Virus record (IMG/VR): IMGVR_UViG_3300031656_000001
Source of the DNA: a virus
DNA: 64,000 nt
Direction: 5' to 3' (one strand)
The position numbers and the translations under genes are program-made. Below, one piece after another: positions 8,104 to 63,917 of the stretch. Numbering within the stretch: position 1 is the first letter of the stretch; every line of letters begins with the position of its first letter. The notes beneath the pieces were generated by a model that was given only the letters and a program-made list of their open reading frames with translations, made no database searches and had not been told where the DNA came from.

Positions 8104-8472
8104 TTATATTCTTTTACCAAGACTAGCACCTAATGCGGCACCAACAAGTCTTGAGGTTAATAAATCGTAAATAATACCCTTTTGTATACCAAGGACTTTA
8201 GCAACCATCTTACCAACTGATTTACCTAGTGCAAATCCAGTAAGACCACCAATAATAGATCCAAAGAATCCTTCATTAGTTATTTCTTCGTTAAAGCTTT
8301 CGATGTCATATGTACCATCTTCATTCATGTATTGCTCATCAAATAAAGCAAGTGCTTCATCAATTCTAGCTTCTAATTCCGGAGTCCATTCTTCTTGTAG
8401 TCCTTCGTTGATTAGTTCCATATCGTTTTCAGAAATAGATTCTTCGACAATGTATTTGTTAAATGTTTTCAT
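8104..8472 (-). CDS. Tagged acidic pro-region plus glycine-zipper membrane-active peptide (putative internal virion/ejection protein)
   Basis: MKTFNKYIVEE tag; acidic N-terminal half; after ITNE a hydrophobic/cationic GFFGSIIGGLTGFALG...GAALGASLGKRI segment; late motif at 8476-8484. Confidence 0.55.
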   Translation of the reverse strand: MKTFNKYIVEESISENDMELINEGLQEEWTPELEARIDEALALFDEQYMNEDGTYDIESFNEEITNEGFFGSIIGGLTGFALGKSVGKMVAKVLGIQKGIIYDLLTSRLVGAALGASLGKRI

Positions 8473-8491
8473 ATGTTATATATCCTATATT

Positions 8492-34644: not shown

Positions 34645-35952
34645 TTACTTTATTTTTTTACTAACTACTATTTCAGTATCTTCAAATCTAGCATCCTTTG
34701 TCATGAAGCCTTCTCTAAATATACCACCAATCATTTTACCTTTAAACATTGTATCTCTTCCTGCAACATAACAGTTTGTTAATGTACAACTACCATGTGT
34801 ATAAGAAGATTCAACTTTAGAATCCTTTGCTTTAGTTCCTTGATATAAACTACCAAACTTTACAGCAGATCCATCTATTTTACAATTATAAAAACTACAA
34901 TTTTCAATATTCCCTGCAAGTTCACAATCAATGAATTCAAAGTTCTCTAACATATATACTGTTGGGAATTTACCGCCCTTGACTTGTACAGCACCGTAAT
35001 CAGAGTCATAATTAATAATCCCAGCAGTCATTGATCCATTTACTATAAGATCCATCACCCTGGTTTTAAATCTCTCCCAGTGCACCTTAACAATAGCAGG
35101 ATTATCTTGTAAATCTGCCAATATTTTAATATCTGGCCAATTCTCAGACACTTTAGTGTAGTCTTTCAACATATCTGAGATTGGCTTATTTTTATTTAAA
35201 ATTCTTTGTAGTTCAATTTTGTTTTCTGCAGTAAATCTAGGATCATTGCAAGATTTCCACATACGTTGTAAGAACCTCTCAGTTAAATAAAGAATATCGT
35301 CTACTCTCTTTTCATAACCTTCCCCGCCAATATATCTAAATTCTAAGTAATTCTTTTCACTCTTAGAAAAGTTTATACCGTAATATTTGGTGTCTGCGAA
35401 TTTATATTGATTTGATGCTATTTGATTTGCATCGAAGTGGAATGATTCCCATTTAGGCATAATCCATTTTACACTTTTAGCGTAAGCCGAATGTTCTCTG
35501 TCTGGAAAAAACTTATAAACCTGTGCTTCGTCGAATTCTAATATGAATTTAAGAATATTCATTTTAGAAACCATTGCAGGATCTTCTAAGTATTTTTTAT
35601 CAAATGATAAGTTAATGTGAATTGATGCTCTATCATTGGTATACCCGTTTTCGGCTATCCAATTAAGCATTTGAATAACTACTAATCTGGCATTTCTATA
35701 TGGAATCGGACCAGTAACTAATTCAATTAGTCCTTTACCGCCAGACATATCTGGCTCCATTTTAAATTCATCAGCAGACGGTACAAAATCTGAATGAGCT
35801 TTGATTTCTAACCTAATTTTTCGATCTAGAAGTTTAGCCAAAGATTTTTGGGTAGCTTCTAGATCGATATTAGAATAGAATTCAAACTCTAATCCCATCA
35901 GTGATGAGTTAAGAATTGATTCTCTTGAAGAATCTATAGATAGTTTTTGCAT
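34645..35952 (-). CDS. Putative amidoligase (COOH-NH2 ligase, glutamine synthetase fold) with C-terminal beta-helix-like region
   Basis: GLEFEF, ELVTGP, ASIHINLS, KYYGINF and LEFR motifs. Confidence 0.78.
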   Translation of the reverse strand: MQKLSIDSSRESILNSSLMGLEFEFYSNIDLEATQKSLAKLLDRKIRLEIKAHSDFVPSADEFKMEPDMSGGKGLIELVTGPIPYRNARLVVIQMLNWIAENGYTNDRASIHINLSFDKKYLEDPAMVSKMNILKFILEFDEAQVYKFFPDREHSAYAKSVKWIMPKWESFHFDANQIASNQYKFADTKYYGINFSKSEKNYLEFRYIGGEGYEKRVDDILYLTERFLQRMWKSCNDPRFTAENKIELQRILNKNKPISDMLKDYTKVSENWPDIKILADLQDNPAIVKVHWERFKTRVMDLIVNGSMTAGIINYDSDYGAVQVKGGKFPTVYMLENFEFIDCELAGNIENCSFYNCKIDGSAVKFGSLYQGTKAKDSKVESSYTHGSCTLTNCYVAGRDTMFKGKMIGGIFREGFMTKDARFEDTEIVVSKKIK

Positions 35953-36004
35953 ATTAGATTATGATATTATCGTTTCAATATATATCACACTCTCGTTGCA
36001 ATAG

Positions 36005-37288
36005 TTATTGAGGCATTTTTAAGAATACTTTCATTGCGTCAACATCAATTCGGGTGATCTGAACGGTAATTTTGTCACCGCTTGAAAATACATCCATAAG
36101 ATCTTCACCAACTTCACTGACGTGTAACAGTCCAGTTACGCCTTCTTCTATTGTAATGAATAAGCCGTAATCCTTTTTAGTCTTAACAGTCGCTTCAATA
36201 GTACATGGCATTTGATATCTTGAAATTATATCATTCCATGGATTAATCACAGCATTTGCCTTTTGAGTAAGTGTGATTTTAGTATTACTAATGATGTCTT
36301 TAACAATAAATGTAATTTCATCACCAGGTATAATTTGTCTTGCCTTGAATTTAACTAAAGTTTCCTCATCTAAATCGTTATTGTGAATCATTCCAGTTAA
36401 GCAACCTTTAAATTCAACAAATACTCCATATTTTGCAGATCCAGTTACGTTTCCAGTAAGTGTCTCTCCTTGATTTTCTTTTAATTTCTCTAGTTCTCCT
36501 GGAATTAAAGCTTGTAAGTATTTTCTATGTGAAACAACTAACGTACCTCTTTCTGGTGAGAAACTTACAGGGACAACATACATTTCAGTTCCTATAATAG
36601 AAGAAAAATCATGTAGTTTATTAATACCTGCTAATGATCCTGGCATGAAACAATCAACGCCTTGTACATTTAGCATGTAACCACCATTTTCAATCATATG
36701 TGTTACTTTACCGATCCATGCAGTGTTGCCTTCTTCGACAGCTTCTCTAAGATCCATAAATACTCTATGTTTAATACCACCGCTAATTGATCCAAGCGCA
36801 TGTGAATTGTTAGGTACTTGTGTAATTAATACAGATGTTGGTTCTCCCGGTTTTAATGCTTGAATGTCTGCTGGTTCTTTAGCATACTTAACGTAAACGT
36901 GTTCTCTGTACCCGATGTCAACACTAAAGAAGTCAGAGTCGACCGCGTAGATTGTACCTTCGTGTATTTCACCTAAATTTAATACTGTAACTAATTCTCC
37001 ATTACTTTCGTTGAAGTCTTCTAGCATATCATACATTTCCTGTGCATATGATTCTCTAGAGAAAACCCTATCACCGTTTTTTGTTTTGATGTGTGGGTTG
37101 TGTTTTCTTGTTTTAGATGGGCAAGTAGCTTCGTAAGCGTCCCACATAAATTCACCAGATTCATCGTAAAATTGTTCTTCTGGTACTATTGGTTTAAAGT
37201 TTTCGATTGCGTTTGATGGTTCTTGAAATGGAACCTGATCATTTTTTACTTCGCTAATTCTAACTCTTTTGTTTTTTTCGTTGTTCAT
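36005..37288 (-). CDS. rpsA: Phage-encoded ribosomal protein S1 homologue (4 S1 domains)
   Basis: S1 repeats (CFMPGS...VVSHRK; YGVFVEF...GMIH; DYGLFI...GLLHVSE); N-terminal EFMWDAYE resembles the Bacteroides S1 DFNWDAYE segment. Confidence 0.85.
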   Translation of the reverse strand: MNNEKNKRVRISEVKNDQVPFQEPSNAIENFKPIVPEEQFYDESGEFMWDAYEATCPSKTRKHNPHIKTKNGDRVFSRESYAQEMYDMLEDFNESNGELVTVLNLGEIHEGTIYAVDSDFFSVDIGYREHVYVKYAKEPADIQALKPGEPTSVLITQVPNNSHALGSISGGIKHRVFMDLREAVEEGNTAWIGKVTHMIENGGYMLNVQGVDCFMPGSLAGINKLHDFSSIIGTEMYVVPVSFSPERGTLVVSHRKYLQALIPGELEKLKENQGETLTGNVTGSAKYGVFVEFKGCLTGMIHNNDLDEETLVKFKARQIIPGDEITFIVKDIISNTKITLTQKANAVINPWNDIISRYQMPCTIEATVKTKKDYGLFITIEEGVTGLLHVSEVGEDLMDVFSSGDKITVQITRIDVDAMKVFLKMPQ

Positions 37289-51800: not shown

Positions 51801-52310
51801 TTACTTAGCTGACCAGACGTCTTTTAACTCGTCGATCTTCTTATTATAAGATTCTTTCATACCATTAAGTATTGCGTCATATGTTTCAATAGTAAGTTCT
51901 TCTTCACCTTTAATCTCAGCGTGTGCTTGTTCTAATGTAGAAGCAGCTAATGTTGCAATTAATGCAGCATTTTCTTTAAGATAAGATTCTAATGTGTGAT
52001 CAGGATAATCATCCCCGTCATAGTCACATGCTTCTTTAATAGCAGATTCATAACCTTCTATTAAACGTGCAGAAACCGTTAATGTTTCTTTATCTTCATC
52101 TTCTTCCTCAGATTCTTCTTCAGATTCAGACTCTTCAGCATCCTCTTCTTTTTCTTCTTCTTCGCCTTCTATTTTTTCATGTTCTTCTGATTCTGAATCC
52201 TCGTCAGAAATACCTAACACTTTGTCATCGTCGGTTTCCGTAATCGCATCAGTACTTGCAAGTTTCTTATTTGCTGCGTACTCTTCGAATGATAATATTG
52301 GTTTTGCCAT
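51801..52310 (-). CDS. Acidic protein with capsid-targeting-like tag (putative core/internal protein)
   Basis: MAKPILSFEEY tag; ITE site; poly-Glu tract; late motif at 52333-52341. Confidence 0.6.
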   Translation of the reverse strand: MAKPILSFEEYAANKKLASTDAITETDDDKVLGISDEDSESEEHEKIEGEEEEKEEDAEESESEEESEEEDEDKETLTVSARLIEGYESAIKEACDYDGDDYPDHTLESYLKENAALIATLAASTLEQAHAEIKGEEELTIETYDAILNGMKESYNKKIDELKDVWSAK

Positions 52311-52341
52311 AATGTTTTTATTATTATTTTATTTATATATC

Positions 52342-53022
52342 TTATTTTGTAGCCTTTTGTTTTTTCTTGGCTGTTTTCAGTTTAGATTTTAAACCGATTT
52401 GTTGTTTTTGAACTGCAGCTTTCATACCATCTGCCGATGCTTGCTGTAGTTGAGACTTTAACAATAAACCTTGTAATTTATCAGTAGGATCCTTTTCTTT
52501 ATCTTTAGAAAGTGCAGCTATGTCTCCTTTAATATCTTTTGATTTTGAAGAAAGACTCTTTTGTTTTTTAGTCAAAGCCTTTATCTTTTGTTTGTCAGAT
52601 TTAGGTTTGCTCTTTTTCTTTTCTTCTATTATACCTTCTTCTAATGTATCTATTTCTTTTGATCTAGCCATTGCCCAATCAACTCCTGCATCTCCTCCCC
52701 AAATTAGCCATGAAACAAAACCTTTATCTAACCATGGTGTTTCTTTAAATTCAGGTGCAATAGTTGCATTTTTTCTATGTCTATTAAATGAAGACATTCT
52801 TTTTACAGTATCGCTAGATATGTTTTCTCCATTAGCCAATTGATGTGCTCTTGCCCATCCGACTGCAGTACCAGCTTCAACTTCTTCTCTGCCATATTTC
52901 TCTTTCCAGTCTATTGCTTTTTGTGCATTCTTTTTAGCAGCTTGAGGATAGTCACTATGTGAATCTTCAGCTTCATTAATTCTACTTAATAAGAATTCTT
53001 CGAATAGTTTAATTCTTTTCAT
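52342..53022 (-). CDS. Tagged protein with a phage head-associated GTAVGWARA domain and basic C-terminal domain
   Basis: MKRIKLFEEFLLSRINE; YPQAAKKNA...GTAVGWARAHQLA...TVKRM...WLIWGG; LEE/IEE junction then a Lys-rich tail. Confidence 0.6.
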   Translation of the reverse strand: MKRIKLFEEFLLSRINEAEDSHSDYPQAAKKNAQKAIDWKEKYGREEVEAGTAVGWARAHQLANGENISSDTVKRMSSFNRHRKNATIAPEFKETPWLDKGFVSWLIWGGDAGVDWAMARSKEIDTLEEGIIEEKKKSKPKSDKQKIKALTKKQKSLSSKSKDIKGDIAALSKDKEKDPTDKLQGLLLKSQLQQASADGMKAAVQKQQIGLKSKLKTAKKKQKATK

Positions 53023-53023
53023 A

Positions 53024-53380
53024 TTATTTTGGTAATCTTACCATTGTTTCTTTAGTTTCATTCTTAAATGTATTCTTAACAAACCCGAATTCTTTATAAA
53101 ATGTTTTAAGTCTATTTACTGAAGTCGCTCCAAAATCTTTAGAAGGTGTTAGATAAATCTTTTTATTTGCATTATCAGCAAAATCAACAATTCTTTCCAT
53201 TACTTTAGAACCAATTCCAGAACCTCTCAGTTCTTTAGGAACTACAATGCGCGAAAGCGCTAACCATTTACCATTATCATAAAGGTCTAATTTTATATTG
53301 AATTCAGTTTCTAATTCCTGAAGAATCATACCTTCATTTATAAAATCTTCAAATACTTTAATATGTCTCATGTTATTCAC
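53024..53380 (-). CDS. GNAT acetyltransferase with capsid-targeting-like tag
   Basis: MRHIKVFEDFINE; LSRIVVPKELRGSGIGS (motif A); RLKTFYKEFGF (motif B). Confidence 0.85.
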   Translation of the reverse strand: MNNMRHIKVFEDFINEGMILQELETEFNIKLDLYDNGKWLALSRIVVPKELRGSGIGSKVMERIVDFADNANKKIYLTPSKDFGATSVNRLKTFYKEFGFVKNTFKNETKETMVRLPK

Positions 53381-53789
53381 CGTATATTCTTTTTACGAAT
53401 CTTTTAATATCTGCATTACTATAATCCAATAATTCACCAATCTCTCTTGCTTCTTCAGCAGTCTTATCTGCTAAATATCCACCATGTGAATCTGCAATTT
53501 CTTTTAATCGTTTTGCTTTCTTTTTACCAGTCGAGTTTGGTCTATATGCAATATATGCATCTCCGTCCTCTTTATCAACTGTCAATACGCCCCAGCCCAT
53601 ATCTCTATATGTTTGTAAGATTCGTATATCGTCTTCACTGTTAACCATAGGATGTTTAGTAACAAGAAAATGAATATCTTTTTTACCATCCATCACTTGT
53701 TTGAAAAGCCAATCCTCAGTATAACCACCAGACGTTGGTAATGTTATCTTCTCATTTATAAAATCGTTGAATACTTTAATGTGCTTCAT
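53373..53789 (-). CDS. Hypothetical protein with capsid-targeting-like tag
   Basis: Likely start is ATG 53789 (MKHIKVFNDFINE); C-terminal EIGELLDY. Confidence 0.65.
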   Translation of the reverse strand: MKHIKVFNDFINEKITLPTSGGYTEDWLFKQVMDGKKDIHFLVTKHPMVNSEDDIRILQTYRDMGWGVLTVDKEDGDAYIAYRPNSTGKKKAKRLKEIADSHGGYLADKTAEEAREIGELLDYSNADIKRFVKRIYGE

Positions 53790-53790
53790 A

Positions 53791-54486
53791 TTAGAATTTA
53801 GGTATACCACCTATTTTTTTAGCTCTTCGTCTCCATAATGTTAATACTTCCTCACGTGAAGTTCCATCAATCGTACCACTTTGTTCTTGTGTGTCTAAAT
53901 ACCTGGTGACTGCGTCGATCATTGATTCCTTTCTTTTCTTAGATTCAAATCTAAGTCCTTGTAAATTTGCATCAACTTCTTTAGGTAACATTAAGTATTG
54001 TGCCTTCGGCATAACTCCTAATTCTATCAGCGCTCTTAATTCAGAGTCATCTTCATTCGGTTTACCCTTTCTATAATTACCGGTGTCTTTTCCGTCTTGT
54101 GTAATGTGTTCCATTTCATGTCGAATAACATCTGCTAAATACATGTAAACCTCTGACCATTCTCCTGGTAACCAATCTGGATTAATAACAAAATCTATAT
54201 TGATAAATGGTGTTTGAAAATCTCCATCGTCATCTTCATCTCTACCATCTGCACCTGTTGAATTAGCTATTTCAAATCCTTTGGTCTTTTTAGTAATATG
54301 AAGTGTAGCTGTAAGATCAAATTCTAATTTATCCTCAATTTGATCAGAGTAATCTATGGTTGTCATTCCATTGGCATGTCCTTTAATCCACGCTTTGAAT
54401 ACCACGCTTGTTAATTTGGATGCTAGTGAATCCCATTTACTTCGACTCTCGTTCAAAAATAAGTTATATGTTTTTATGTGTTTCAT
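53791..54486 (-). CDS. HEXXH zinc metallopeptidase-like protein with capsid-targeting-like tag
   Basis: MKHIKTYNLFLNE; VIRHEMEHITQ; downstream YL...EVDA third-ligand pattern. Confidence 0.72.
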   Translation of the reverse strand: MKHIKTYNLFLNESRSKWDSLASKLTSVVFKAWIKGHANGMTTIDYSDQIEDKLEFDLTATLHITKKTKGFEIANSTGADGRDEDDDGDFQTPFINIDFVINPDWLPGEWSEVYMYLADVIRHEMEHITQDGKDTGNYRKGKPNEDDSELRALIELGVMPKAQYLMLPKEVDANLQGLRFESKKRKESMIDAVTRYLDTQEQSGTIDGTSREEVLTLWRRRAKKIGGIPKF

Positions 54487-54500
54487 GTATTATATATCAT

Positions 54501-54532
54501 AAAAAAAGGGGAATGATTTCTCAGTCCCCTTT
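54501..54532 (-). terminator. Rho-independent terminator
   Basis: Minus strand AAAGGGGACTGAGAAATCATTCCCCTTTTTTT, immediately followed by GATATATAA (54490-54498). Confidence 0.85.
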
Positions 54533-62956: not shown

Positions 62957-63163
62957 TTAGTCTAAGTTGGGTGAAACGTGTGTTACTTTTTCTGGATCTA
63001 TAGATACCTTTTCTCTAAGATCAGCTCTAAGATTCTTTTCTTGTAGTTTTTCTAAAACAGCAGTTCTTTTTTCAGCAACTTCGCTATTCTTATTAGATTT
63101 TTCTAGAGCATCTGCTATTCTTTTTAATTGAACAACTAACTCTTTTGTAATTTTATCTTCCAT
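62957..63163 (-). CDS. Hypothetical coiled-coil protein
   Basis: LKRIADALEK. Confidence 0.55.
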   Translation of the reverse strand: MEDKITKELVVQLKRIADALEKSNKNSEVAEKRTAVLEKLQEKNLRADLREKVSIDPEKVTHVSPNLD

Positions 63164-63917
63164 GTCTATTCTTTACTAAGTCTGACTCACCGTTTTGAAA
63201 ATCTTGGTAAGGCAATGATTTATCTTTTTGGCCAGCGTGTGGGCCGTTTACCATTATAGTGTCTTTATACGGATTTGTTTCACCGTCTAGGCCCTGTTCT
63301 TTTAGTTTACGACTCAACCAAGAATGCATATCTTCTAACTTTCCGTTAAAGTGTCTGATTCTTTCTAGATCTGAATTCTCACTAGCAAAATCCTCATACA
63401 ATTTAATGTACTTCATTTTGTTTTGGTGGGATTCTTTAATATTTAATACGGATTTGATAGCATCTATGAATACTGATTCTGGTACTCTATGTCCACCATT
63501 GTATTTTGTGTGATAAAAACTACCTGAACCGATGTGCCCAAAGTATCTCATTACTTGTTCACCATTTATAACAGTATCGCTTTTCCCTAGGTATACATTG
63601 TGAGTAGTACCGAAATTTAATCTTGTATCATCTACTACGGGGTCAAACGTCCTATCAACAACTGCTGGGTTAAATAGAAGAGTTTCTATTCCAAGCTTAC
63701 TCCCAATCAAATACGCAACATATCCACCCATAGATGATCCTACGATTAAATCTGGTTTTAGTTGTTTAATTGATGAATATAATTTATCAAATGTTTTTTT
63801 ATTTCTATATGCAATTGATGGAGCAAATACTTCATCAAACGTTTCTCTTAAGAATATGATCTTAGGGTCTTTTTCGTCTATGCTAGATTCTAAACCGTGT
63901 AAATATGCTATCTTCAT
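63153..63917 (-). CDS. YqiA-like alpha/beta hydrolase fused to a tagged C-terminal domain
   Basis: YLHGLES, GSSMGG, NPA, D and GGH catalytic pattern; internal MKYIKLYEDF at ATG 63416. Confidence 0.8.
   Translation of the reverse strand: MKIAYLHGLESSIDEKDPKIIFLRETFDEVFAPSIAYRNKKTFDKLYSSIKQLKPDLIVGSSMGGYVAYLIGSKLGIETLLFNPAVVDRTFDPVVDDTRLNFGTTHNVYLGKSDTVINGEQVMRYFGHIGSGSFYHTKYNGGHRVPESVFIDAIKSVLNIKESHQNKMKYIKLYEDFASENSDLERIRHFNGKLEDMHSWLSRKLKEQGLDGETNPYKDTIMVNGPHAGQKDKSLPYQDFQNGESDLVKNRHGR

Follow-up and report, generated by a model that had tools for sequence, protein, structure and literature searches.

The five consecutive genes at positions 51801–54486 of a viral DNA stretch of 64,000 nucleotides (IMG/VR record IMGVR_UViG_3300031656_000001; the whole stretch is termed the window) quite probably form a late-expressed internal-protein locus of a T4-related phage, with products that share an N-terminal leader peptide and would be packaged into the head, cleaved and injected into the host. 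Judged from its genes, the locus is a homologue of the T4 system of internal proteins bearing a capsid-targeting sequence (CTS), situated in a distant T4-related clade, and it is by homology with T4 that we infer packaging, cleavage, injection and a role against host defence. A sequence-only reading of the same DNA had proposed a modular addressing system of this kind. Its proposal is upheld by the enrichment of the leader at gene starts, the hypervariability of the cargo behind it, the presence of a gp21-family protease in relatives, and the coincidence of conserved leader positions with the functional positions of the T4 CTS.

All genes of the window lie on the minus strand, with a G+C content of about 32%. 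The first four genes of the locus run from 54486 to 52342, are spaced by 1 nt, and encode proteins of 231, 138, 115 and 226 aa, respectively; the fifth (52310–51801, 169 aa) lies 31 nt beyond gene 4. These open reading frames (ORFs) and their N-termini are as the sequence-only reading had described them. Gene 1 (53791–54486) joins a 13-aa leader (54448–54486) to a zincin-like HExxH domain (motif at 54106–54120), while in gene 2 (53373–53789) and gene 3 (53024–53371) leaders of the same length (53751–53789 and 53333–53371) precede, respectively, a domain without assigned function and a minimal GNAT acetyltransferase. Gene 4 (52342–53022) combines a 17-aa leader (52972–53022) with a helical domain (residues 18–133), a predicted I-I-E joint (52624–52632) and a lysine-rich basic tail (52345–52623). 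Gene 5 (51801–52310) encodes a very acidic protein with a weak, long leader and a predicted I-T-E site at residue 25 (52236–52310).

The leaders of genes 1–4 are amphipathic, 13–17 aa long, and unified by the consensus M-[KR]-x-[ILV]-K-x-[FY]-x-x-F-[ILV]-x-E. A profile of 40 distinct leaders from the window and its relatives, scanned across the six frames of the window as the sequence-only reading had proposed, recovered five sites at 15.6–28.3 bits, namely 53371 (28.3 bits), 53789 (26.1), 54486 (21.4), 63416 (20.6) and 53022 (15.6), with the next best match at 4.9 bits. The relaxed core [FY]..[FY][ILVA].E is N-terminal in 6 of 67 proteins as against 4 of 19,646 internal positions (Fisher p = 1.2e-8), and the Met-initiated copy at 63416 is itself one of the four internal occurrences. 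The claim of five consecutive related leaders is strong for genes 1–4, whereas the leader of gene 5 is weaker and longer; together with those at 8472, 2847 and 1241, the leader at 52310 falls below the strict profile, and it fits the relaxed core. Among the related leaders that had also been claimed outside the locus, the one at 63416 was recovered by the strict profile, whereas those at 8472, 2847 and 1241 fit the relaxed core only, the first of them with exactly the 10-residue spacing of T4. The N-terminus of the gene 5 product (isoelectric point, pI, 4.05) is conserved in 19 orthologue variants, 16 of which have an [ILV]xE site at residues 22–29.

The conserved Lys, Phe and Glu residues of the leader use synonymous codons at approximately their genome-wide frequencies, and hence selection acts on the peptide rather than on the RNA or DNA. 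In the T4 record NC_000866, the internal proteins IPII and IPIII begin with MKTYQEFIAE followed by Ala, and the leader of IPI comprises 19 residues ending in I-T-E. Mutagenesis of the IPIII CTS assigned targeting mainly to residues 4 and 7 and processing to residues 8 and 10, with Asp at position 10 blocking cleavage while targeting was kept (PMC9026906). When three residues are inserted after M-K, these four CTS positions correspond to leader positions 7 ([FY]), 10 (F), 11 ([ILV]) and 13 (E), which are among its most conserved. The leader probably reads as a "load into head, then cut here" tag.

Comparisons with related genomes point to extensive modularity behind this tag. Orthologues of the HExxH protein are found on 27 IMG/VR contigs (57–74% identity), and in all 27 relatives the locus carries a differing assortment of genes, nearly all of which start with the same leader. 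The variable stretch was delimited by a conserved 81-aa gene (where the flank is present) and a dCMP deaminase gene (where the contig reaches it), and its flanks are syntenic among the relatives. Across the 28 contigs, i.e. the window and these relatives, the 106 leader proteins represent at least 30 cargo families, between which BLAST detects no similarity, in agreement with the earlier claim that many unrelated cargoes share one leader. The strict leader pattern occurs 9 times in the 462-kb uncultured phage LR756500.1, whose helicase shows 45% identity and whose capsid protein is 50% identical to that of the relative G001, and 4 times in the 636-kb LR756504.1, the reversed-pattern control giving 0. 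The matches in both of these phages are scattered over both strands. A DNA pattern scan found the strict 13-aa pattern to be absent from T4, Flavobacterium phage immuto, Tenacibaculum phage PTm1, Lak-A1 and LR756501, which confines the exact tag to one sub-clade. A search of the locus DNA against 50,697 phage records gave no match. The nearest cultured kin of this clade of huge T4-related phages infect Flavobacteriia, and the clade itself probably infects Bacteroidota.

The gp21-like protease on which cleavage of the tag would depend is present in the large relatives of the window phage, all five of which matched PF03420 (T4 gp21, the S77 prohead protease) and also encode portal and capsid proteins of the T4 type. 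In G001 the portal gene is followed by a 122-aa gene whose leader-like N-terminus is related but weaker, and then by genes for an 820-aa protease, the capsid protein and a 326-aa protein that likewise starts in a leader-like manner. Four of the five large relatives have a small leader-bearing gene in the interval from portal to protease, which in T4 is occupied by the core genes 67 and 68. The N-terminal domain of the G001 protease shares 27% identity with T4 gp21 (E = 4e-11) and aligns a His and a Ser with H85 and S140, the catalytic pair of gp21; between the G001 capsid protein and gp23 the identity is 26% (E = 3e-17). The N-terminus of the capsid protein in each of the five relatives shows a conserved stretch ending in L-I-N-E (at residue 7 in the shortest form), which is the same type of site as the end of the leader. 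The protease lies within a long ORF in LR756500.1, and is fused to a scaffold-like tail in G001 (147160–149622; L042:7160-9622), in L047, L049 and L050, and in PTm1 gp300 (L051). This tail of about 400–650 aa is acidic, with coiled-coil-like repeats and [LV]AE sites (LAE, VAE) every 14 residues. A complex prediction for the G001 protease-scaffold protein with its tagged GNAT returned a score of 0.00, which speaks neither for nor against binding.

The expression signals are compatible with a late locus. Gene 1 is preceded on the same strand by an intrinsic terminator (54505–54532), whose hairpin of 8+3 bp with a GAAA loop (-14.5 kcal/mol, z = -3.5) is followed by a U-run and would end the upstream unit, and then by the late-type promoter motif GATATATAA (54490–54498), 3 nt ahead of the ATG. 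The sequence-only reading had identified a terminator and late motif at 54490–54532, and both elements stand: the folding z supports the hairpin, and the motif also precedes tail and baseplate genes. The pair is kept upstream of most HExxH orthologues, the stem sequences differing by compensating changes. A second late-type motif, GATATATA(A), abuts the stop codon of gene 4 (52334–52341, minus strand). The window contains 12 copies of GATATATA, all on the coding strand, of which 10 sit 12–65 nt ahead of a gene start. The starts so preceded include those of large tail and baseplate genes (46118, 37288, 35952, 22058 and 14221) and of the leader genes at 54486, 52310, 8472 and 2847, which bears out the statement that leader genes follow a late-type motif. 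A total of 12 copies does not exceed the chance expectation of 8 ± 3, and only the bias in strand and position is informative. In the window scan, GATATATAA is common at the motif level to leader genes and to tail and baseplate genes, and we infer that it is the late promoter of this phage group. At 54486–54498 and at the orthologous sites in L007–L028, GATATATAA stands 3–5 nt from the ATG, leaving no space for a Shine-Dalgarno sequence; if the motif is a promoter -10 element, little or no 5' leader would be left on the late mRNAs. Interspersed with the baseplate and tail genes are two genes (34645–37288, minus strand), each behind GATATATA, that encode an amidoligase-like protein of 435 aa and a 427-aa protein with an S1 RNA-binding domain at its C-terminus.

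With respect to the cargo, the peptidase-type motif reported for gene 1 proved to be invariant, H123, E124 and H127 being retained in all 18 orthologues. In the AlphaFold model (predicted local distance difference test, pLDDT, 77), residues 1–14 are disordered and are followed by an N-terminal helix, a beta-sheet and the motif helix; HExxH lies on the helix at 110–129, past strands at 43–101, and an invariant E170 on the next long helix. The modeled layout agrees with the description of the zincins in PMC5512222. A homologue of this domain forms the C-terminal module of the 907-aa multi-domain protein gp088 of Flavobacterium phage immuto, and the alignment starts at residue 14; taken together with the disorder of the leader in the gene 1 model, this places the domain boundary at the predicted cut. 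The immuto protein itself (L034:5901-8624; annotated as NadR-like) has a nucleotidyltransferase (NTase)-like N-terminus, an NMNAT-like HxGH region and two HExxH domains, and in this composition looks like a polyvalent protein.

The label of ligase-like NTase for the 138-aa product of gene 2 found no support, as no family match was obtained in Pfam, PHROGs, NCBIfam or the Atlas. Its eight database homologues all bear a variant of the leader, which closes with N-E or S-E. The GNAT assignment of gene 3 was confirmed by three Pfam models that exceed their cut-offs, namely PF13508 (32 bits; cut-off 27), PF00583 (27.1; 20.7) and PF13673 (26.3; 23.6). The basic domain previously listed among the cargo corresponds to the tail of gene 4, with a pI of 10.25. 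The helical domain of gene 4 (model pLDDT 88) has 330 homologues, in which it is fused to GNAT, NUDIX, UPF0227, SnoaL or DUF5824 modules; in several of them full or partial leaders form the joints between domains, the corresponding joint of the window protein being I-I-E133.

Beyond the five-gene locus, a UPF0227 esterase ORF (63153–63917, minus strand; Pfam PF05728) continues in frame and with no intervening stop into a complete internal leader (63378–63416) and a domain of about 75 aa, which together, counted from the leader Met, make up 87 aa. L024 has the same esterase-leader fusion, but L025 and L028 encode its two halves as separate genes; the region represents either one gene nested in another or a polyprotein whose joint can be cleaved. 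The relatives add a 2H phosphoesterase, an ATP-grasp domain and DUF5824 to the cargo. Acb1 is an anti-CBASS protein (directed against the cyclic-oligonucleotide-based antiphage signaling system), and the tagged 2H phosphoesterase, which has both HxTx motifs ([H-x-[TS]-x]), scored 24 bits against the Acb1 model PF23474 (cut-off 27). This gene stands directly behind the HExxH gene at L002:4607-5155, L005:3747-4295, L022:8657-9205 and L023:10693-11250, and is not found in the window.

Three further genes of the window, all on the minus strand, carry relaxed leaders. A 122-aa gene behind GATATATAA (8104–8484) has a 10-aa leader of T4 length, followed by an acidic propeptide-like stretch with several [ILV]xE sites and a glycine-zipper C-terminus; its product resembles a small, membrane-active peptide that is kept masked by its propeptide. 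The glycine zipper of this protein (8104–8472) scores below the threshold of the Pfam Gly-zipper model. A 528-aa gene starts at 2847 (1261–2893, including GATATATA upstream at 2886–2893), and an ORF with a leader at 1241 (1–1241) continues past the window edge.

These observations suggest the following course of events. The terminator followed by GATATATAA would head a four-gene operon, and the second copy of the motif would head the acidic gene 5. The two aromatic positions of the leader would dock each protein onto the prohead scaffolding core, for which relatives encode the gp21-type protease with its scaffold-like tail, and the prohead protease would then cut after the leader Glu and probably also at internal [ILV]xE joints such as I-I-E133 of gene 4. 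The mature zincin-like protein, the GNAT, the domains without assigned function, the basic tail and the acidic peptides would stay in the head with the DNA and enter the host on ejection, where the enzymes could act ahead of any phage gene expression, likely in host takeover or anti-defence. The type of cargo fits delivered effectors, given the HExxH module of immuto, the 2H phosphoesterase of the relatives, and the finding that, among the domains of polyvalent proteins delivered by virions, zincin-like peptidases are the most frequent (PMC5512222).

Several observations weigh against this interpretation. The window, with its 64 kb, contains tail and baseplate genes and no head module. The leader of gene 5 is weak, and the internal leader at 63416 lies within an ORF with no late motif nearby. 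Fold searches with the HExxH model of gene 1 gave a best E of 0.12 with Foldseek against the PDB and a VIA-wide best Z of 5.3, which is at background, and the fold search with the helical domain of gene 4 yielded no match (best E = 1.1). The search of BFVD with the HExxH model returned uncharacterized phage proteins only, and profile searches with the alignments of both domains against PDB sequences gave no matches. The enzymatic roles of the HExxH and helical domains are accordingly proposed at the motif level only.

It is conceivable, though improbable, that targeting and processing proceed as proposed and that the proteins then work inside the capsid, in core or scaffold building, as counter-ions or condensing agents for the DNA, or in pressure control, rather than as injected effectors. 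The extreme acidity of the gene 5 product, which recalls that of T4 gp67, and the basic tail of gene 4 would suit such a role, as would the location of leader-bearing genes within the head module of the relatives. However, GNAT, zincin-like, NUDIX and ATP-grasp domains, and the 2H phosphoesterase of the relatives, have no obvious task in a capsid, and the hypervariability of the locus is what would be expected of genes engaged in an arms race.

The two other explanations considered deny the leader a role in capsid targeting. That the shared start is a feature of the nucleic acid or of translation, such as an A-rich initiation enhancer for mRNAs lacking a Shine-Dalgarno sequence or 5' leader, or the boundary of a recombination cassette, draws on the AAA-rich first codons and on the position of the motif 3–5 nt from the ATG in many copies, whereby the mRNA may be almost leaderless. 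This explanation is very improbable: the amino acids are fixed although their synonymous third positions are free to vary, conservation extends to codon 13, and leaders, whole or in part, are also met at domain joints within ORFs, a long way from the 5' end of any mRNA. We give scarcely any credence to the leader being an amphipathic helix that addresses the proteins elsewhere, i.e. to a membrane, the phage replication compartment or a chaperone. The prediction does indeed make it a short helix standing apart from the fold, but it has neither a hydrophobic core nor signal-peptidase features, always ends in a cleavage-type [ILV]xE, and co-occurs with gp21-type proteases in genomes where the same site opens the capsid protein.

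Returning to the interpretation as an internal-protein locus, a broader generalization can be put forward, albeit tentatively and at somewhat less than even chances. The 13-residue tag may be a clade-wide code for addressing and cutting that doubles as an interdomain joint, so that any domain recombined behind it would become packaged, protease-released cargo, and the tagged set would amount to a catalogue of injected effectors comprising zincin-like, GNAT, Acb1-like 2H phosphoesterase, NUDIX, ATP-grasp and esterase domains. Should the tag function as it does in T4, this short motif would predict, from sequence alone, the proteins of uncultured large phages that travel in the capsid and are the first to reach the host, a class normally found by virion proteomics only. 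The tagged set includes families linked to counter-defence, such as the 2H phosphoesterase resembling Acb1, and several domains without assigned function, and it thus offers a focused list of candidates for anti-defence screens. These observations also suggest an ancient origin for the targeting mechanism of T4 and its portability between T4-like lineages that are very distant from each other, and this portability bears on the loading of foreign proteins into other phage capsids.

The principle of such a tag is already known, as descriptions of diverse T-even internal proteins with only the CTS in common go back to Repoila et al. 1994, a work considered here as it is cited in PMC3012670 and PMC9026906; the lineage, the form of the tag and the cargo are new. 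A literature search found no paper describing a CTS or internal-protein system for this lineage. The closest parallel is provided by IPI, IPII, IPIII and Alt of T4, with their CTS and gp21 processing (Mullaney & Black 1996), which share with the present proteins a short propeptide at the N-terminus, in which two aromatic residues spaced three apart directly precede (I/L)-x-Glu. The T4 internal proteins are also alike in having unrelated cargo that shares only the tag, polymorphic loci, and both basic and acidic members, and the T4 head genes are alike in the association of a gp21-family protease with gp20- and gp23-type genes, which is here seen in the relatives. The layout of gene 5 resembles the 19-aa leader of IPI, and its acidity that of gp67. 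In contrast to the 10-aa CTS of T4, the leader of this clade has 13 aa, with the three extra residues after M-K, and it recurs inside ORFs as an interdomain joint. The arrays are larger (at least 30 cargo families) and include many enzyme-like cargoes, and the protease of the relatives is fused to its long scaffold-like tail, whereas T4 has separate genes 21 and 22. The host, moreover, is here probably a member of the Bacteroidota.

The polyvalent proteins (Iyer et al. 2017, PMC5512222) are comparable as multi-domain effectors delivered with the DNA, and the similarity extends to a zincin-like HExxH hub, the module in immuto gp088 and the recombining domain of gene 4. They differ from the present set in that the latter consists mostly of separate small genes, each with its own tag, and in that its fused domains would be parted by the prohead protease at tag-like joints rather than by built-in peptidase domains. 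In phiKZ and SPN3US, propeptides are cut at (S/A/G)-x-E. The ejection and inner-body proteins of the phiKZ-like and SPN3US giant phages (PMC5694885) offer another parallel, a gp21-related protease trimming the propeptides of many internal head proteins that enter the host; those propeptides are mostly 80–130 aa or longer and without a common short consensus, whereas the leaders described here comprise 10–25 aa and are unified by one.

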